Source: Promethearchaeota archaeon (GTDB taxonomy: Archaea > Asgardarchaeota > Thorarchaeia > Thorarchaeales > Thorarchaeaceae). Taken from it: DNA of 32,000 bases. The position numbers and the translations under genes were made by a program. Positions 2,009 to 19,389 of the stretch are shown here, piece by piece. The stretch is from contig JALVPN010000144.1 of NCBI GenBank assembly GCA_027031765.1, positions 1 to 32,000 of the forward strand. The letters are read 5' to 3'. Under the pieces are notes generated by a model. The model was given only the letters and a program-made list of their open reading frames with translations. It had not been told where the DNA came from and made no database searches. The stretch's first letter is position 1, and the number at the start of each line of letters is the position of its first letter.

Positions 2009-2146
2009 GGGACAGGTGACACGCAGATAGGCCAATCACTCGAGACGCACCCTAGAGGCAACAGTCCCTAGCAGGATGTCGCCTGCAGACACCGGGTAAT
2101 GAGCAGAGCGTTCAGAAAGAGTGATTGCACAGACCAACAAGTAAGT

Positions 2147-2836
2147 ATGAGGTACTGGTCGTACTACAGGAGTGTGACAGATGAGTTGGTAAAGACTGTA
2201 GAGGCACCGCCTGAACTCCACCCACTAATAGAGGAGATAGAAAAGAAATACGAGGAAGTATTCGCATCGCACCTTGAGTTCAGGCCGGAGGAGAGCCGTA
2301 TTCGGCTCCTAGGAAAAGACGTGATGTTCATAGGACTCAGGGCAGTAGCAATCGACCTGAAGGACGAGCTCGACAGAGTCCTGGGAGAACAGGGAAGAAA
2401 CCTCCTAATCTACCGCCTAGGACAGTCGTTTGGCCGCTCTGAGGCGGAACGCTTGATCCCACAGCTCGGCGTTGAGGGACTACCGGCAAGACTTGCTGCA
2501 GGGCCAATCTGGGCGGCATTCTCCGGATTTGTGAGGGTAAGACTACTCCCGGGATCAGTGCTCGAGCCGAATGAGAACTATTTTCTGTTCTACGAACATC
2601 CGAACAACTTCGAGGCACAGCTCTGGAAGGACGAGGGACGCACGAGTCAGGAGCCAGTCTGCTTCTTCAACGCGGGGTACTCGTCAGGCTGGTGCTCAGT
2701 TGCATCGGGGCTGGACCTGGATGCAGAGGAAATCCTATGTGAGGCCAAGGGCGACCCTGTCTGCAGGTTCATAATGTTCCCATCGTCCCGCCGGATGGAA
2801 TACATGGAACGCGTGGACGAATACAGGAACATATAG
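2147..2836 (+). CDS. Stand-alone V4R (4-vinyl reductase) domain protein, XylR/DmpR effector-domain-like
   Basis: NNFEAQ...EPVCFFNAGYSSGW...EEILCEAKGDPVCRF matches the V4R Cys/Glu pattern. The N-terminal half resembles XylR_N (ESRIRLLGKDVMFI...LIYRLGQSFG). No AAA+ or HTH domain. Start uncertain (ATG 2099 or 2147). Confidence 0.85.
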   Translation: MRYWSYYRSVTDELVKTVEAPPELHPLIEEIEKKYEEVFASHLEFRPEESRIRLLGKDVMFIGLRAVAIDLKDELDRVLGEQGRNLLIYRLGQSFGRSEAERLIPQLGVEGLPARLAAGPIWAAFSGFVRVRLLPGSVLEPNENYFLFYEHPNNFEAQLWKDEGRTSQEPVCFFNAGYSSGWCSVASGLDLDAEEILCEAKGDPVCRFIMFPSSRRMEYMERVDEYRNI

Positions 2837-3047
2837 AGTAGAGAACAGGAGTGCACGGCATACAGGGGCCTGCACTGGGGTCTCCACTGCGGCTGGCACG
2901 GACATGTGGCTGGGGCAACTGACCTGGCAAGATGTGGTCTGTATTGCATGTGACATGACAACGTCTGTATGTGTCCGCGCACCACGGACGGTGGGTTCAC
3001 TCTGACAACGACAACTAGAAACAGGGGGCGAATAGATGGGAGGAAGA

Positions 3048-3665
3048 ATGAAACCGTACGACTACAAGGTCTACGTGACCGGGCCATTCCAAGCGGGAAA
3101 GACAACTCTCATCCACACTCTCGACCCAGATGCCATATCAATAGAACGTGAGATGCGAGAAGCATATCGTGGTGAGAAGGGGACGACGACCACAGGGTTT
3201 GATCTAGGTCGGGTCGTGTGGGTGAGGAAAGAGGTGCATCATGACGGACTGGTTGTCCCAAAGAAGGAGTTTGAACGCGAAAGGGCCGAGTACGACGGCT
3301 GGACAACCAGAGAGATTGAACTCAGAGGTGTGCCAGGACAACTACACTTCAAGTTTGTCAGAGACACTATGCGGATGAACACCGATGGTGTCCTCATGAT
3401 TGTGGACTCGTCAGACTACGGGATGATTGGTGATGCAAGCGCAATACTGGCAGAAACGATAGCTGCATTCGGCGACATACCTCTGGAAGTGATTGCAAAC
3501 AAGCAGGACCGTAACGATGCCGCTAGTCCAGAAGAGGTCGCGACATGGCTAGGAGTAGAGAAGGCGACCGGTATGTGTGCAAAGGATCACGAGTCGGCCC
3601 GAGAGGCACTGATACGCCTGCTGAAGAAGCTGGAGGGAGCAGGGGAGGAAGGGGGGTCTGCATGA
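3048..3665 (+). CDS. MglA/CvnD-like small GTPase
   Basis: G1 GPFQAGKTT, G2 TTTGFDLG, Asp-less G3 GVPGQ (as in MglA TVPGQ and CvnD GTPGQ), G4 NKQD, G5 CAK. GGGAGG lies upstream of ATG 3048. Confidence 0.9.
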   Translation: MKPYDYKVYVTGPFQAGKTTLIHTLDPDAISIEREMREAYRGEKGTTTTGFDLGRVVWVRKEVHHDGLVVPKKEFERERAEYDGWTTREIELRGVPGQLHFKFVRDTMRMNTDGVLMIVDSSDYGMIGDASAILAETIAAFGDIPLEVIANKQDRNDAASPEEVATWLGVEKATGMCAKDHESAREALIRLLKKLEGAGEEGGSA

Positions 3666-5415: not shown

Positions 5416-8064
5416 ATGGAAGATGCTGTCGGAAAGAAGGTGAAGCGACGTTCGTTGAAGATTGAAGGGATGCACTGTGCATCCTGTGTGGCAACCATTG
5501 AAAGGGCACTCCTAGAGCAGGACGGGGTGATAAGGGCCACCGTAAGTCTGCTGGACGAGAAGGCGGTCGTAGAATATGACCCTCAGAGAGTGGACACGCC
5601 GGATCTTGAACGGGTGGTCGAGTCAACGGGGTATTCAGTCCGACGGGCAAAGATGACTCTCAGGGTCACATCAAGACCAGACGTCGATGGCTGGGAGGCA
5701 ATAGTTGATACCTTGAAGGGGACTGAAGGAGTCCTAGGAGTAGAGGTGTATCCTGAAAGGGACATGTTGATAGTGGAATATGACGACGATCTCGTCACTG
5801 TCAGGACGGTGAAACGGGCGCTACGCACTGTGGGCCACACCATAGAGGAGGAGGAGAAGTCAAGGACGGACCGGGAGTCGCTGGCAAGAACACAAGAGAT
5901 AAGACACTATACTAGACTGTTGGCCCTGGCACTTGCACTCTCAATACCAGTGGTCCTGGTCACGTTCGGTGTACTGACACCGCTACTGCCCGAGGGCGTC
6001 ACACCAGCGATGGTCAACTTCGTACTGACGACGCCGGTTCAGTTTGTGGCAGGATACCCATTCTACAGGTCGAGCCTGAAGGCAGCACGACATGGAAAGT
6101 TGAACATGGACACCCTGATAATGCTTGGGACCAGCGCGGCCTATTCGTACTCAGTGGCTGCGACGTTCGTGTTCACTCAGTACGATGCTTTCTACGACAC
6201 TGCTGCCCTCCTGATCACATTCATACTCCTCGGGAGGACTCTTGAGGCGGTGGCCAAGGGGCGCACATCACGTGCAATAAGGGAGCTCATGGATCTCCAG
6301 CCAAAGGCAGCAACGGTGTTGCGCGACGGGAGAGAGGTGCTGGTGCCGGCTGATGAACTTGAGGTGGGAGACGTGGTCCTTGTGAGACCCGGCGAGAAGA
6401 TACCGGTGGACGGTGAGGTCATCGAGGGCATGTCATCTGTGGACGAGTCAATGATAACTGGAGAGTCCGTGCCCGTGAGCAAGGGGCCAGGTGACACGGT
6501 CGTCGGTGCGACCATCAACAAGAACGGCGTGTTGCGAGTCCGTGCGACAAAGGTAGGACAGGACACGGTCCTCTCACAGATAATACGGCTTGTGGAGAGT
6601 GCCCAGACCCAGAAGCCGCCAATCCAGCGGAAGGCTGACGCGATTGCAGCAGTGTTCGTACCGGTCGTGATGACACTTGCCCTCGTGACATTTGTTGTCT
6701 GGGCATTTGTGTTCACCCAGCCATGGGTACGGGCACTGAGCTTTACGATTGCAGTCCTCGTAGCTGCGTGCCCCTGTGCACTCGGTCTTGCGACACCGAC
6801 CGCACTGATGGTAGGTCTGGGCCGTGGGGCAAAGTACGGGATCCTGATAAAGACCGGCTCCGCGCTCGAAACGATACCGAGGATTGATGTGATAGTATTT
6901 GACAAGACCGGGACACTCACAGTCGGTGCGCCCACGGTGACCGATGTCATCACGGATTACAACACTGACGAGGACTCTGTACTGTCAGTGGTGGCAGCAG
7001 TAGAGACCAACAGCGAGCACCCATTGGCTGAGGCAATTGTGAACTATGCAAGAGAGAGAGGTATTGATATCCCGCAGGTCGATGCGTTCGAGGCCGTCCC
7101 CGGGCGCGGCGTGCGGGCGCGGGTCGACAACGAAGTTGTACTCGTCGGGAACGAGGACCTCCTTGCCGACGCGGGAGTGGACACTACGCGACTCCTCGGA
7201 ACGGCCAAGGGACTACAGGACCAAGGCAAGACCACAGTCTTTGTGGCCCGTGATGGACGGGCGCTTGCAGTCATTGGGATTGCAGACACACTGAAACCCA
7301 GTTCACCACAGGCAGTTAGGCTGCTCAGGGAGATGGGAATTGAGGCCATCATGCTTACAGGGGACAAGAGGAGGACTGCAGAGTTCATCGCCGCCTCCGT
7401 GGGAGTTGACCATGTGATGGCAGAGGTGCTGCCGGAGCAGAAGAGCGCCAAGGTCAGGGAACTACAGCGAGAGGGACGAGTTGTAGCGATGGTAGGAGAC
7501 GGGATAAATGATGCACCAGCACTGGCCCAGGCCGATGTCGGCATTGCGCTCGGGAGTGGCACAGACGTGTCGATGGAAACGGGGGACATAGTGCTTGTAC
7601 GGAGCGACTTGCTGGACGTGGTTGCAGCAGTCCAGCTCGGACAGAAGACTATGACCAAGATCCGGCAGAACTTCTTCTGGGCGCTAGTATACAACATGGC
7701 CCTGCTCCCCATAGCTGCAGGAGTGCTATTCCCCATAGCAGGCATAGTGCTCCGGCCTGAACTCGCTGGCCTGGCAATGGCATTCTCCAGCGTGAGTGTG
7801 GTGACCAATGCACTACTACTCGGGCGCTTCAGACCGGTGGTTGGTGAGAGTGACACGGGCACGACAGGTCAGATGGGGCCGGGAACAGCGGTGGACCCTG
7901 TGTGTGAGATGCATGTAGAGATTACAGACGAAACGCCAGCATTTGAGTACAACGGCCGGACATTTTATTTCTGTGCCGCCCGCTGTAGGGACATGTTTGC
8001 AGCTAGGCCCGAAGAATACCTTGAGAAGAAGAGGACTGAACAGGAAACATCGAGCTGGAACTGA
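5416..8064 (+). CDS. copA: Cu(I)-exporting P1B-type ATPase with N-terminal HMA domains and C-terminal YHS/TRASH domain
   Basis: [47 protein letters not shown] and MAFSSVSV (P1B-1 signature). C-terminal DPVCEM...[11 protein letters not shown]. Confidence 0.96.
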
Positions 8065-10325: not shown

Positions 10326-11102
10326 CTATTCAGCATCTACTACTGCATCGACCACCAAGGTGCGACTGGACTCTATGAATGGCCTAGCAGAATAGTCTGC
10401 AAAACAAGAAACGGTCCCAAAGCCGGCGTCGTGTAGGGTTTCCACAAGCCAGAGGGGGCTTATGTTGAGAACCCGTTGTGTGACTGTGGAAGACTGCCAA
10501 TGGTCGCCAGTGCGTTGCGCAACTAGGAATACCAACGTGGACACCGGTTCAGATGGCAGGTGGTCGAAGAACCTCGCAAAAACGACCGGAGTGCCACTTC
10601 TGCCAGCACCCACACGCATGGGTAAGGGGCTCAGAGGCGAGGCCCGGAGTACATCAAAGTTCAGCAACTGGAGCACAGTCCGGCCATGTGGGGACAACAT
10701 GTCAGCAAGGGTGTATAACAGCTGCTCAACATCAGTGAGACTTGGCAGTAGCGACAGCGAGTTGCCAATGCACAGTACCATCTGGATGTCGCCTTGTGCA
10801 ATTAGTGTCGCATCACGCATATCAGCCAAGATGAACTGTGGGGTGGGTACGACACTCTGGGCAAGGACATGGGCAGCCCGGATCATTGCCAGACTAGAGT
10901 CAATCCCGATGACCCTGTACCCACGGCGCGCTAGGGCCACCGCATGGTGTCCACTACCACATGCAATATCTATGACCGAACCGCTATCTGGTGTGGCAAG
11001 CCTCTCCGTGATGAATGGCAGTTCTCTACCCAGACGGGTACGCCAGTCAATTGTCTGGTCATAGGCCAGCGCCACTTCGTCGAACACGGCCAGTCCAATC
11101 AC
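10326..11102 (-). CDS. Class I SAM-dependent methyltransferase
   Basis: Motif I VIDIACGSG, VIGIDSS, ADMR and LCIGNSL. Start uncertain (GTG 11102 or 11087). Confidence 0.88.
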   Translation of the reverse strand: MIGLAVFDEVALAYDQTIDWRTRLGRELPFITERLATPDSGSVIDIACGSGHHAVALARRGYRVIGIDSSLAMIRAAHVLAQSVVPTPQFILADMRDATLIAQGDIQMVLCIGNSLSLLPSLTDVEQLLYTLADMLSPHGRTVLQLLNFDVLRASPLSPLPMRVGAGRSGTPVVFARFFDHLPSEPVSTLVFLVAQRTGDHWQSSTVTQRVLNISPLWLVETLHDAGFGTVSCFADYSARPFIESSRTLVVDAVVDAE

Positions 11103-11217
11103 TTCCGGCAGACACCATATGGTGTCATATTGAACCGAGGGGGAGATGGATAAGTCCTTGGGAAGCGGGCCCTCCGGGCAACTGCCTGATCAGATGCTAT
11201 CAGGACGACCAACGACA

Positions 11218-12575
11218 TCATGCCAACGGTGGGGGGATTTGCCATCCAGACCCAAACAGGTCGTCCAGCGCAACAACTGGCCGGTCCAGTGCGGGGACGT
11301 ATTTCGTCGACCACAGGATGACGTGTCTGAGCATACGCATCGCTGGCGCGTCGGGTTTGTTGTACGGACAGGAGCGGATACAGTTACAGTTGGAGCAGTC
11401 CGTACCGTTGTCAAGCCAGTACCCATGACAGGCCTCAACATCGACGTACCACTTCTTCACGCCAGGGTCATTTGACCTGCACACGCCCTCCCAAGTCTGT
11501 TCCCGCTCGTAGGGGATTGCCTGAAACGGGCAGTGTCTGTCACACTTGTCGCACACCTCGCAGAACCGGATTACAGACTCGCAGAACTCCATGTCGGGAC
11601 CGTCAGGGCCCAGTGGCATGTCGGTGAGCACTGTGCCAATGCGCACATACGAGCCATACTTTGGAGTGATGAGCAGTCCGTGCCGTCCGTACTGCCCCAG
11701 GCCGGCATCGATGACCAGTGGCACACTCAGTGCCACATCGTTCCCACACACCACTGCCCGGTAGCCCATGTCCTCGATGGACTGAGCAAGCATGAGTTCA
11801 ATCACGACCAGCCGGGAGTAGCCCACGGCCGTTGGAACACTTGCAAGCATCGCTGGGGAGCTGCTGATGGACTCGTAGTCCATGCGGACAACAAGGACAA
11901 CAGCACGGTTGATGTCAGACGGGATGTTGTAGGGCACACCGAAGCGGTCCTTCGCATAGACCCATCGTCTGTCAAGCGCTGCAATGCCGACATCATCTGC
12001 TCCGAGATGGCGTGCAACACGCTTCGCGAGGGGCGCAGGTGCTCTGGACTTGCAGACACACGCTTGCTGGCTGGATCACCTACTAGACCACAGGGTCTGA
12101 GCTCGACCACATTGCCATAGACCCACCATGGTGCCACAAGTAGGGCGGACTCTGCAGGCGAGTACCCAAGAATGCCAAGCTCGACCACATGTGCTGCCCC
12201 AGAGTACGCACTACGTCCATAGTACTTGAAAGACGGCTCCTGCTGTGCACAGGCAAATATGTGGTCGGTTTCGCAGAAGCGACAGTATGATGGGCGCACA
12301 CGGTACGGTCGACTCTTGGACTGGACGGCTTGGCCACGGTCACTAGTGCGCTGCGGCGGGGTCGTCTTCCGACCGTATTCCGGGACAATGGCCCCCAGTG
12401 GGCAGGAAGGCACACATCCGAGGCAGGCGGTACACTCGGAGGGCCGCACAGTGGGGCGGCCACTCTCCCTGTTGAGGGCAAGTGGACTCCGTCCCTTGCG
12501 TACAGAAACGAACGAGACCACACATTCAAAGTCGCAACCAGACGGGTCGCATGTCTTCGGGTCTATGACCGCCAT
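11218..12575 (-). pseudogene. rdhA: Reductive dehalogenase (RdhA-like, cobalamin/2x4Fe-4S) with N-terminal RLI-type ferredoxin domain; one frameshift at about 12031-12035
   Basis: Joining two frames gives ...SPEHL / LAKRVARHLGADDVGIAALDRRWVY...GYSR...LSVPLVIDAGLGQYGRHGLLITPKYG...FCEVCDKCDRHCP...CHGYWLDNGTDCSNCNCIRSCPYNK. The span is 1358 nt, consistent with a 1-nt deletion (452 aa restored). Confidence 0.8.
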
Positions 12576-12773
12576 GTCTCGTGCCAGCCCGGAGGTGTGG
12601 GGCCCTCATGCGGCCAGAGGGTATTATCCACGCTTGTCCTCGGCCCAGACAGACTTCTATGACTCCGTACGGACAGTGCCATTCTGGGCCATCGTACGTG
12701 TTCCCAGTGACACAAAAACTAAATCGTGCCGCCGTGCTACCAGTGATGACCCCTGACAAGGGAGAGAGGCCTG

Positions 12774-13202
12774 ATGACGATTGACCCACTCCTAGATGCC
12801 CTCAAGAAGATTCCAGTGGAGATGCTTGCAAGTGCGCTTGACAGCCTACCAGTAGAGTTCACGATAATCGACGCAGAAGAAAGAGTCCTGTTCTGGAACC
12901 AGCACGGTACACGCACATTCAAACGTGGCCCGGGAGTGATTGGTCGGAATGTCCGCATGTGCCATCCAAAGTCCAGTCTCGACAAGGTCGAAAGAGTGAT
13001 TGAGCTCCTGAAGAGTGGCAAGAAGGATCATGTTGACTTCTGGATTGATATTGGGGAAGGTGATGACAAGAGGAAAATCCTCATACGGTACTTCGCCATC
13101 CGAGATGACGAGGGGAAGTACCTTGGAGTCCTTGAGGCCACACTCGACCTGACACCACTCCAGGAGATAACGGGGGAGAAACGGCTCCTAGACGTGGAGT
13201 AG
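12774..13202 (+). CDS. Stand-alone PAS domain protein (PAS_10-like, as in the DUF438 C-terminus)
   Basis: LDSLPVEFTIIDAEERVLFWN...RGPGVIGRNVRMCHP...FWID...IRYFAIRDDEGKYLGVLE is the typical PAS_10 pattern. Confidence 0.88.
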   Translation: MTIDPLLDALKKIPVEMLASALDSLPVEFTIIDAEERVLFWNQHGTRTFKRGPGVIGRNVRMCHPKSSLDKVERVIELLKSGKKDHVDFWIDIGEGDDKRKILIRYFAIRDDEGKYLGVLEATLDLTPLQEITGEKRLLDVE

Positions 13203-13217
13203 GGGCTGCATGTCAAT

Positions 13218-13479
13218 ATGAGGACACAGAGGACACGTCATCCCCGGGTCACTGTCCACACGGAGGACTGCACGGGGGTGTCTAAGGTGTGTCCGGGGGT
13301 GCCCTGAGAGGATGTTCGGGGGCGTCAGAAACGTAGAGAGCATGCGCACGGTAGTGGTGGTGGAGCCGGAACACAACTGTGTGGCCTGTCTTCTGTGTGA
13401 AGTGGTCTGCCCGGTGGACGCAGTACATGTCGTGACGTACGGCAGGTCTGATGACACGCTTGGTGCGCTCCTGCTCTAG
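13218..13479 (+). pseudogene. 2[4Fe-4S] ferredoxin with +1 frameshift in a G5 run (13274-13278); not in the ORF track
   Basis: Removing one G gives MRTQRTRHPRVTVHTEDCTGCLRCVRGCPERMF...EHNCVACLLCEVVCPVDAVHV (86 aa), with two perfect CxxCxxCxxxCP motifs. Confidence 0.85.
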
Positions 13480-13593: not shown

Positions 13594-14813
13594 ATGTGTG
13601 GCGTGTCGCTGAGCGACAATGAGAAGGCCATCCGTAATCGGACACGCACTTTTGTACGTGACCGGGTTGACCGGGAGCTCGTCCTAAAGGTGAATGGATG
13701 GGAGGAATACTCATGCGAGTTCATCAAATCCGCAGGGGACACAGGACTACTGGGGCTGCGTTTCCTACGTAGATATGGTGGGCACAGACTAGACTGGGTC
13801 CACGAGGTGCTTGCACTTGGAGGTCGGAGTGCTGGGATTGCACTTGCATGTGCGTACTCGCTCCTCAGTACTGTGGGACAGGGCATCCACTGGTTCGGCA
13901 CGGAAGAACAGAAGAAGATGTATCTTGAGCCAACACGGTGCGGTAAGACGATTTGTGGAGATGGGCTGACCGAGCCCCGGGGTGGTTCGGAATTCCTTGG
14001 CACCAACACAGTGGCCATCAAGGAGGGCGACACGTACACAATCAACGGCAGGAAGCGCTTTGTTGCGGGGGTGTTGGTAGAGACTACTTCCTTGTCTATG
14101 CACGAATCAGTTCTGATGCCCCGTCACATAGGTCACTGACGGCATTCCTAGTGGACAGGGATGCAGACGTTGAGGTCGCTGAGGAATACGAGCTGATGGG
14201 GCGTCGGGGGGTGGGGGCGGCCCGAATTGTGTTCTGGGAGGAGGTACCTGAGGCCGCCGTACTCGGCAAGGTTGATGGCGGCACAGCAGTGTTCAATACA
14301 ATAATGGTGTCCGAACGGCTAACCTCTGCATCAAACCCACTTGGAATGGCACGGGCGGCGCTTGAGATTGCGGTCAGGTATGCAGACCGGCGGCAGGCGT
14401 TCGGTGGGGGAATGAAACAACTTTGAGGAGACAAGTTTCAAGTTGGCGACTGTGCGACGCGGCTCGATGCAGGCCAGGGGCTCGTGTACCGTGCAGCCAA
14501 GGTCGCAGACACTAGGAGGTGGTGTAGGAGGGAAGTCGCACAGGCAAAGCCGTTCTGCACCGAGGCGGCCCTCAAGGTTGTCAGCGAGGCCATGCGAGTC
14601 CTTGGCGGTATAGGCCATACCAACATCTGTTTCATTGAACGTCTGTTCCCAGACGCACATCTTGTCACCATATTGACTGGGAGCAATGAGATACAGCGTC
14701 CAATCGTCCAGAAGGAATTGTTCAAGGAAGTCCTGTCTGAAGGCCGTTCGGATAGTCGTGATGTCAAGCCCTACACGCCGGGGGTACACAAGGTAGCGAA
14801 AAAAGGTGTTTGA
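13594..14813 (+). pseudogene. Acyl-CoA dehydrogenase, disrupted
   Basis: ACAD motifs GTEEQK, GLTEPRGGS, INGRKRFV, ERL...GMARAALEIAVRYADRRQAFG, AKPFC, VLGGIG and GSNEIQR are spread over three ORFs. There is a frameshift at the G run 14067-14071, an in-frame TGA at 14424-14426, and apparent small deletions. Confidence 0.88.
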
Positions 14814-17616: not shown

Positions 17617-19389
17617 CTACTCCAGCACGGCCTTTATCCGGACAAGACCGGCACCTATCTTCTTCTGCTTGACTATACGGAACTTTCCAAGGACGCCTGT
17701 GCGCTCGACGTGGGGCCCACCACAGAGCTCCATGCTGAAGTCGCCCACCCGGTAGACAGACACCTCGTCACCATAACGCTCTTTGAAGAAGGCGAGAGCC
17801 CCTGCAGCAATGGCCTCATCATAGGGCATGAACAGGTGCTCCACTTCGAGGTCCTGCTCGATTACCTCGTTGACGAGACGCTCTACCTCCTGGATCTCCT
17901 CGGGAGTCAGTTTGCGTGGAAATGTGAAGTCGAAACGCAGGCGTTCCCGCGTAATGTTGCTGCCCATCTGGCGGACGCCTTCGCCTAGTACCTTTCGGAG
18001 TGCAGCCTGGAGGAGGTGGGTGGCTGTATGTAGCCTTGTAATCTCTTCGCTGTGGTCAGCAAGGCCACCCTTGAACTTGCCCTGTGTCGCAGTCCGGGAA
18101 ATCTCCCGGTGGTGTTCAAACTGCCGCTGGAACTCTTCCATGTCGACAACAATCCCGCGCTCCTCTGCAATCTCCCGTGTCATCTCAGGGGGAAGACCGA
18201 AGCTTGTGAAGAGCAGGAACGCATCAGCGCCAGTGATGGTCCCAGTCTCGTTGAGGATCTTGTCCAGACGGCGGAGTGCCTTGTCCAGTGTGCGCCGGAA
18301 CTTCTTCTCCTCTTCGACCAAGTTCTTCATCACGGAGTCACGGTTGCGCCCGACCTCCTCATAGACATCCTTGTAGATGTCAATCACAATCTCAGCCAAG
18401 CCGGGCAGAAAGCCGGGCTGGATTCCCAGACGGTCGGCACTCAGGATTGATTTTCGCAACAGCCGGCGGACAATGTAGCCCTGCTCGACATTGGAGGGGG
18501 CAATGCGGCTGTCATCAGCCATTATCATGACCGCGGACTTTACGTGGTCAGCAATGATGCGGATGTTCGTGATGTCCTCATCGTCAAAGTCCGTCTTTGG
18601 AGAAACAGACTTGATGTGTTCTATGAGTGGGCGGAATACCTCCGTTTCGAAGACCGTGGGGGCACCCTGGAGCATTGCAGCTGTGCGTTCCACACCCATC
18701 CCGGTGTCGATGTTCTTGCGTTCCAGCCGCTCGTAGGTGCCGTCATCCTTCTTGTAGTACTCCATGAACACATCGTTCCACACCTCGAACCAGTGCCCAC
18801 ATGAGCAGCCCGGTTGACAGTCAGGGCCACACTTTGGGATGTTGTCCTGTTCTATGAACATCTCAGTGTCAGGACCACACGGGCCGGTCTTCCCAGCGGG
18901 CCCCCACCAGTTGTCCTTCTTTCCAAGGTAGAAGATGCGTTCTTCCGGGATGCCAAGCTCACGCCAGATCCTAGCCGACTCCTCGTCCCGGGGCGCGTCA
19001 TCATCGCCAGCAAAGACGGTCACAGCAAGTTTTGCAGGGTCGAAGCCGAGCCACTCCTCCGAGGTGAGGAACTCGTGGCTCCAGGTGATGGCCTCTTTCT
19101 TCCAGTAGTCGCCAAGGCTCCAGTTGCCAAGCATCTCGAAGAATGTGAGGTGCGACGCGTCACCCACCTCGTCGATATCTGTCGTGCGGATACACTTTTG
19201 GCAGCTGGCCAGACGCGTCCCCTGGGGATGCGGCTGCCCCAGCAGATATGGTACAAGTGGGTGCATGCCGGCTGTCGTGAAGAGTACTGTGGGGTCGTTC
19301 TCGGGGATTAGGGAGGCCGAAGGAATGATGGCATGTCCCTTCTGTTTGAAGAACTCAAGGTACTTCTTCCGGAGCTCAGCCACACGCAT
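17617..19389 (-). CDS. alaS: Alanyl-tRNA synthetase, short form without C-Ala domain
   Basis: DPTVLFTTAGMHPL, QKCIRT, HLTFFEMLGNWSLGDY and IDTGMGVER; editing domain HTATH and ELCGGPHV. Ends at 590 aa. Confidence 0.96.
   Translation of the reverse strand: MRVAELRKKYLEFFKQKGHAIIPSASLIPENDPTVLFTTAGMHPLVPYLLGQPHPQGTRLASCQKCIRTTDIDEVGDASHLTFFEMLGNWSLGDYWKKEAITWSHEFLTSEEWLGFDPAKLAVTVFAGDDDAPRDEESARIWRELGIPEERIFYLGKKDNWWGPAGKTGPCGPDTEMFIEQDNIPKCGPDCQPGCSCGHWFEVWNDVFMEYYKKDDGTYERLERKNIDTGMGVERTAAMLQGAPTVFETEVFRPLIEHIKSVSPKTDFDDEDITNIRIIADHVKSAVMIMADDSRIAPSNVEQGYIVRRLLRKSILSADRLGIQPGFLPGLAEIVIDIYKDVYEEVGRNRDSVMKNLVEEEKKFRRTLDKALRRLDKILNETGTITGADAFLLFTSFGLPPEMTREIAEERGIVVDMEEFQRQFEHHREISRTATQGKFKGGLADHSEEITRLHTATHLLQAALRKVLGEGVRQMGSNITRERLRFDFTFPRKLTPEEIQEVERLVNEVIEQDLEVEHLFMPYDEAIAAGALAFFKERYGDEVSVYRVGDFSMELCGGPHVERTGVLGKFRIVKQKKIGAGLVRIKAVLE

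Follow-up and report, generated by a model that had tools for sequence, protein, structure and literature searches.

A decayed reductive dehalogenase gene with a putative ABCE1-type N-terminal Fe-S domain in a Thorarchaeales genome

Described reductive dehalogenases and the locus analysed here

Thorarchaeotal reductive dehalogenases (RDases, here RdhA) with an additional N-terminal 4Fe-4S domain were described by Manoharan et al. (2019, mBio, PMC6737245) as PceA-like proteins in which Tat and RdhB are absent and Tyr246, Arg305, and Asn272 are conserved; the extra domain was labelled as pfam00037 only, with no tie to ABCE1/RLI. N-terminal ferredoxin domains are also on record for RdhA-like proteins of Heimdallarchaeia (Han et al. 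2025). The fusion, the missing Tat signal, and the missing RdhB have thus all been published, and the ABCE1-type assignment of the extra domain alone seems to be unreported; a literature search pairing reductive dehalogenase with ABCE1 found no paper. The original prediction, made from the DNA examined here, did not know of this fusion as characterised; its description in Thorarchaeota dates from 2019 and that in Heimdallarchaeia from 2025.

Two groups of known enzymes frame the comparison. PceA (4UQU, 8Q4H) is the closest solved relative of the catalytic core and has the same two Fe-S motifs and the same active-site Tyr, Asn, and Arg; it is an exported protein, bears a Tat signal, and docks on RdhB in the membrane, whereas the Asgard family has none of these three traits and possesses a cytoplasmic two-cluster N-terminal domain. 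Catabolic, ‘self-sufficient’ RdhA of the NpRdhA/BhbA type (4RAS, 6ZXU) are likewise cytoplasmic and lack Tat and RdhB, and in some of them a module for electron input is joined to the core, as is proposed for the Asgard family. In these catabolic enzymes, the module sits at the C terminus and is of the flavin/NAD(P)H plus 2Fe-2S type (PMC6737245; Han et al. 2025), whereas the Asgard module is N-terminal and of the 2x[4Fe-4S] type.

Here, we analyse an RdhA gene in a stretch of 32,000 nucleotides (the window) from a Thorarchaeales genome (GCA_027031765.1, contig JALVPN010000144.1). The gene belongs to the same family as the putative RdhA of Thor- and Lokiarchaeota (PMC6737245), its best matches being thorarchaeotal ‘reductive dehalogenase’ entries of about 450 aa, and it differs from those published proteins in being frameshifted and in having lost one cluster ligand. 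We consider it likely that the locus is the pseudogenised sole copy of an RdhA family of Thorarchaeota and related Asgard archaea, the intact members of which are soluble proteins of about 450 aa consisting of an ABCE1-type domain, a linker, and a PceA-like core. The new elements are small, namely that the extra domain can be assigned to the ABCE1 type and that three redox genes decay together at this locus.

Elsewhere (155-1960, 2099-3665, and 5416-8064), the window encodes a CBS-domain ClC chloride channel, a V4R/XylR_N protein with an Arf-like small GTPase after it, and a copper P-type ATPase that has HMA and YHS domains. It also contains an alanyl-tRNA synthetase ORF (17617-19389, minus strand) of 590 aa with catalytic and SAD domains, which seems to be without the C-terminal domain usual in archaeal AlaRS.

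The pseudogene occupies positions 11218..12575 of the minus strand and comprises 452 codons when read across its break; it is of the cytoplasmic Asgard type of RdhA, in which an Fe-S domain stands at the N terminus. The upstream frame runs from an ATG at 12575 to 12036 (minus strand) and encodes 180 aa ending in SPEHL. The C-terminal frame, which holds the RdhA core (11221..12036, minus strand; stop codon at 11218-11220) and is identified by its match to TIGR02486 and its alignment with PceA, is open from 12075, and family-like sequence begins in it at 12036 (APLAKRV...). The frameshift, at which SPEHL is succeeded by APLAKRV, lies within 12030..12040 (minus strand), at CTG/CG beside a CCCC run. 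Because both frames have base 12036 in common, exactly one base is missing, and the junction of the 452-aa read-through product is gap-free in alignments with database homologues. The original prediction had correctly placed the frameshift at about 12033, the one-base loss being found at about 12036, and the length of the repaired protein is as it had claimed.

Two further predicted lesions were recovered as described. The codon TTC at 12510..12512 (minus strand) encodes Phe22 where the Cys that is the fourth cluster ligand is expected, and a single G-to-T substitution separates it from TGC; this column is Cys in 84 of the 85 full-length homologues. At 11380..11391 (minus strand), ACAGTTACAGTT forms a perfect 6-bp tandem duplication (AACTGT twice on the coding strand, ACAGTT twice on the other), which inserts Asn-Cys in the second core Fe-S motif and turns the family form CSNCIRSCP into CSNCNCIRSCP; CSNC is canonical, without an Asn-Cys insertion, in all 84 aligned homologues. 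The two ORFs called at the locus are parts of a single broken gene, and the annotation is corrected here in that sense. A functional form split into two polypeptides was considered and is unlikely, as the second ORF (GTG at 11937) would lack the conserved GADDVGIA strand region.

The catalytic core and the distribution of the fusion

The remainder of the protein had been called RdhA-like, and placement relative to QueG, a member of the same corrinoid/Fe-S superfamily, was judged from HMM scores and PDB E-values. The C-terminal part of the window copy scores 162.8 bits against NCBIfam TIGR02486 (cut-off 160.35) and 53.7 bits against the QueG model TIGR00276 (cut-off 200); intact orthologues reach 218-225 bits on the former and about 50 on the latter. 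When the core is compared with PDB sequences, PceA chains are nearest (Desulfitobacterium hafniense PceA 8q4h, 4e-45; Sulfurospirillum multivorans PceA 4uqu, 4e-41), with NpRdhA more distant (5e-19) and QueG more so (4e-6). By these measures, the protein groups with reductive dehalogenases rather than with QueG; some database copies of this RdhA family carry a wrong QueG label.

The fold was assessed on a model of P0003, an intact same-family orthologue, and not on the broken window copy. The AlphaFold model of P0003 has a pLDDT of 86.9, with residues 67-86 disordered, and its fold matches rank PceA best (8e-27, 26-32% identity), ahead of NpRdhA (1e-18) and QueG (2e-7), which supports a PceA-like corrinoid-binding fold. 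In the HMMER alignment to 4uqu, three active-site residues of PceA have counterparts in the window copy (all on the minus strand): the Tyr of GYS (11812-11829) aligns with Y246, the Asn of CGND (11731-11748) with N272, and the Arg of YVRIG (11635-11652) with R305. Of the two Fe-S motifs that had been read in the core, the first (C-x2-C-x2-C-x3-CP; 11527..11562, minus strand, from the alignment) is intact, and the second is the one interrupted by the two-residue insertion.

An alternative reading, which we regard as unlikely, is that the family is not an organohalide reductase at all, but a corrinoid/Fe-S reductase of the RdhA-QueG superfamily that acts on another substrate and bears the RdhA label by similarity only. 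In favour of this reading, the Pfam Dehalogenase model PF13486 stays below threshold for the window copy (E 0.045); a cytoplasmic protein that lacks RdhB and any convincing Tat motif does not belong to the classical respiratory type; and gene neighbourhoods differ, with ferredoxin and acyl-CoA dehydrogenase here and MtrH and RACo in other genomes. Against this stand the passing TIGR02486 score, far over that for QueG, the conservation of the PceA active-site Tyr, Asn, and Arg, and the fact that the best structural matches are PceA (30-32% identity).

The homologue search returned 697 homologues, the best being 59-60% identical, about 450 aa long, and mostly from Thorarchaeota, with Promethearchaeota, Hodarchaeota, and Lokiarchaeota labels also represented. 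Strong full-length matches occur in 17 of 24 same-family genomes; because several of the 24 have no match or only weak QueG-like ones, the gene is patchy within the family. The fusion itself is shared, the N-terminal domain being found in essentially all relatives. Database ‘short forms’ that appear to lack it were rejected as mis-called starts, as the domain lies in frame upstream in loci L070 and L071. In these two loci (L070 2300-3667 and L071 2290-3622; Thorarchaeota P0015 and P0085), the NCBI starts are too late and cut off the Fe-S domain. There, the RdhA gene is divergent from genes for MtrH and a RACo-type corrinoid activator, and a PAS sensor kinase gene lies downstream of RdhA.

The original prediction had also stressed that the protein lacks an RRxFLK Tat motif and an rdhB partner, and neither was found. 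Neither a twin-arginine motif nor a hydrophobic segment occurs in the window protein. Among 84 homologues, none has a convincing Tat motif: a single one has an RR string, which is spurious and lies inside the ferredoxin domain, and two have a marginal hydrophobic segment. No rdhB-like membrane gene adjoins RdhA, whose neighbours in the window are a methyltransferase gene and a PAS_10 gene.

Likeness of the N-terminal domain to ABCE1/RLI

Residues 1-63 (12387..12575, minus strand) form a putative ABCE1/RLI-type 2x[4Fe-4S] domain, identified by the RLI model, by a profile search of the PDB, and by hhalign. The Fe-S domain of ABCE1/RLI (Pyrococcus abyssi 3BK7) has the same length and the pattern C-x4-C-x3-C-x3-C ... 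C-x2-C-x2-C-x3-CP, and the profile match to it is full-length. The window copy reads C-x4-C-x3-C-x3-F ... C-x2-C-x2-C-x3-CP, so that seven of eight Cys remain, and all eight are present in 84 of 85 full-length homologues. The Asgard family differs from ABCE1 in that it does not conserve the Pro next to the fourth Cys and in that the ABC ATPase domains are missing: in the window protein, the RdhA core stands after the Fe-S domain in place of the twin ATPase domains. The role of the Asgard domain is also presumably different, being electron transfer rather than ribosome splitting.

Several profile comparisons point to the same identity. Positions 4-66 of the NCBIfam RLI equivalog model match window residues 1-63 (E 1.4e-7), and the model also matches three intact orthologues (3e-10 to 2e-6). 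A family profile built from 23 N-terminal domains was searched against all PDB sequences, and the only matches covering the whole domain in a single stretch (profile 3-65, 2e-10 to 2.5e-8) are ABCE1 chains of archaea, yeast, and mammals; polyferredoxins top the list only by summed short matches to the second motif. When the same family was aligned by hhalign with eight archaeal ABCE1 N-terminal domains, taken from the source genome and its relatives, the probability was 99.2% (E 1.3e-19, 66 columns), vs 63% over 24 columns for a control, the family's own C-terminal Fe-S region. Residues 4-66 of P0003 match ABCE1 ORFs of about 600 aa in the genomes of relatives.

Generic Fer4 models of Pfam match all 23 members, whereas Fer4_RLI (PF04068) matches 10 of 23 and does not match the window N-terminal domain. 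AlphaFold gave a poor model of the isolated domain (pLDDT 57), with which Foldseek found nothing below E 1e-3; eight of its ten best matches are ABCE1 chains, at E 7e-3 or worse and a TM-score of about 0.4. The Pfam results and the weak fold matches speak for a rival explanation, in which the domain is an ordinary bacterial-type 2x[4Fe-4S] ferredoxin with a likeness to ABCE1 that arose by chance from common Cys spacing. We consider this explanation quite unlikely, because generic ferredoxins match the second motif alone (profile about 33-69) whereas ABCE1 covers 3-65 in one stretch, because the hhalign result far exceeds its control, because P0003 matches the ABCE1 ORFs of relatives, and because ABCE1 chains prevail even in the weak fold search. 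The ABCE1-type assignment of the extra domain is thus well supported at the level of sequence profiles, as the original prediction had suggested for the first 64 aa.

The true ABCE1 gene of the source genome lies on another contig (C124, locus L028). The second cluster motif of its product reads CSGEGIC, as against C-x-G-C-x-I-C in seven relatives, so that one cluster ligand of an essential protein is apparently Glu; the locus is partly masked (X).

Decay of RdhA and its neighbours

RdhA is present as a single copy in the source genome, which is 95% complete. Relative to 84 homologues, the window copy departs from the family at 6 of 63 invariant columns and 22 of 89 near-invariant columns; in other members, departures reach at most 3 and 12, with means of 0.3 and 3.5, respectively. 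Its TIGR02486 score is about 55-60 bits below those of intact orthologues. The original view of a decayed copy is hence borne out by the three lesions, the six altered invariant columns, and the lack of an intact second copy in the genome. At the same time, the decay is not advanced, as it has spared the three catalytic residues (Tyr, Asn, and Arg) and the first of the core Fe-S motifs. The terminal branch of the window RdhA is long (1.22 vs a median of 0.54), but this was dropped as a sign of relaxed selection: AdoHcy hydrolase, a housekeeping control from the window, shows the same lineage effect, with nearly the same ratio (0.21 vs 0.11).

The nearby ferredoxin and acyl-CoA dehydrogenase genes are broken as well. 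The order methyltransferase, RdhA, PAS_10, ferredoxin, and acyl-CoA dehydrogenase is wholly or partly common to three other genera (genomes G011, G012, and G015). In the window, the divergent PAS_10 gene (12774..13202, plus strand), a syntenic neighbour in G012 and G015, is intact. The following gene, for a 2x[4Fe-4S] ferredoxin (13218..13479, plus strand), is split because the G5 run at 13274-13278 has one G too many, and an intact homologue of 127 aa occupies the same place in G011 (L010 2898-3281). In the acyl-CoA dehydrogenase pseudogene (13594..14813, plus strand), the reading frame shifts near the G5 run at 14067-14071, a TGA stands in frame at 14424-14426, and otherwise conserved stretches are altered; G011, G012, and G015 have intact syntenic copies that encode 380-423 aa. 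Three of four consecutive genes are therefore broken within 3.6 kb, with reading frames open elsewhere in the 32 kb. As the breaks affect RdhA and these two genes but none of 16 other long ORFs in the window, a small redox module of RdhA, ferredoxin, and acyl-CoA dehydrogenase is decaying in the source genome.

All DNA evidence comes from assembled contigs of one hydrothermal-vent run, in three assemblies. An ENA contig is 100% identical to the window over 6.7 kb, a Logan contig of the source run covers 11000-12800 with zero differences at a word depth of 14.7, and the same second ORF of 239 residues is called on both; run X3 of the same study does not cover this stretch of the window. A slip of the assembler is thereby excluded; a platform error, which all three assemblies of the one run would share, is unlikely. 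All three frameshifts lie at or beside G/C runs, yet 33 G/C runs of at least five bases inside the 16 open long ORFs cause no break, so a general homopolymer error is unlikely. That the living cell has a working gene, with the frameshifts in RdhA and its two neighbours being sequencing or consensus errors at CCCC or GGGGG runs in DNA known from one run only, is very improbable even though the catalytic residues are kept, given an identical sequence from three assemblers at about 15x depth, the unbroken runs of comparable kind elsewhere in the window, lesions that are not of the homopolymer type (the Cys-to-Phe change, the 6-bp duplication, and the in-frame TGA of the acyl-CoA dehydrogenase gene), and the changes at invariant family columns.

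In the relative that the control gene places nearest, G011, the RdhA orthologue has a single in-frame TAA (contig C51, L010 about 2026-2028) that leaves ORFs of 269 and 180 aa in an otherwise well-conserved gene. This TAA may be an independent and very recent inactivation or an error; taken at face value, it points to repeated loss of RdhA in this part of the family.

Proposed mechanism and meaning for the family

Under the preferred reading of a pseudogenised copy of a fused RdhA family, the following mechanism may be proposed for the intact members. The core, which combines a corrinoid-binding fold with two [4Fe-4S] motifs of its own, is joined to the N-terminal domain by a linker of about 20-25 poorly ordered residues. 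A cytoplasmic donor would reduce the N-terminal clusters, and electrons would then travel via the two core clusters to the corrinoid, which amounts to a putative four-cluster wire. The reduced corrinoid would in turn reduce a substrate, presumably an organohalide, with reductive cleavage of a carbon-halogen bond. The fused domain would in this way fill the role of electron entry that RdhB and the quinol pool hold in respiratory enzymes. In this clade, the co-decaying ferredoxin and acyl-CoA dehydrogenase are candidate donors.

A more ambitious version of this scheme can be advanced only tentatively, and we doubt that it holds in full: that the N-terminal domain is a captured archaeal ABCE1 Fe-S domain serving as the electron entry of a self-contained four-cluster cytoplasmic corrinoid reductase, and that the shared decay of RdhA, ferredoxin, and acyl-CoA dehydrogenase marks a real functional module, in which electrons from acyl-CoA oxidation would pass through ferredoxin to RdhA, with an organohalide or a similar compound as a fermentative electron sink of Asgard archaea.

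The general picture of Asgard metabolism is unchanged by these observations, and their practical value is modest. The co-decay of three neighbours is a cheap hint as to pathway partners, and the ABCE1-like identity of the extra domain offers a concrete hypothesis for the electron entry point in intact orthologues. For the organism, the locus captures a lineage that is losing its only RdhA together with two redox neighbours, which fits the patchy distribution of the gene in the family.
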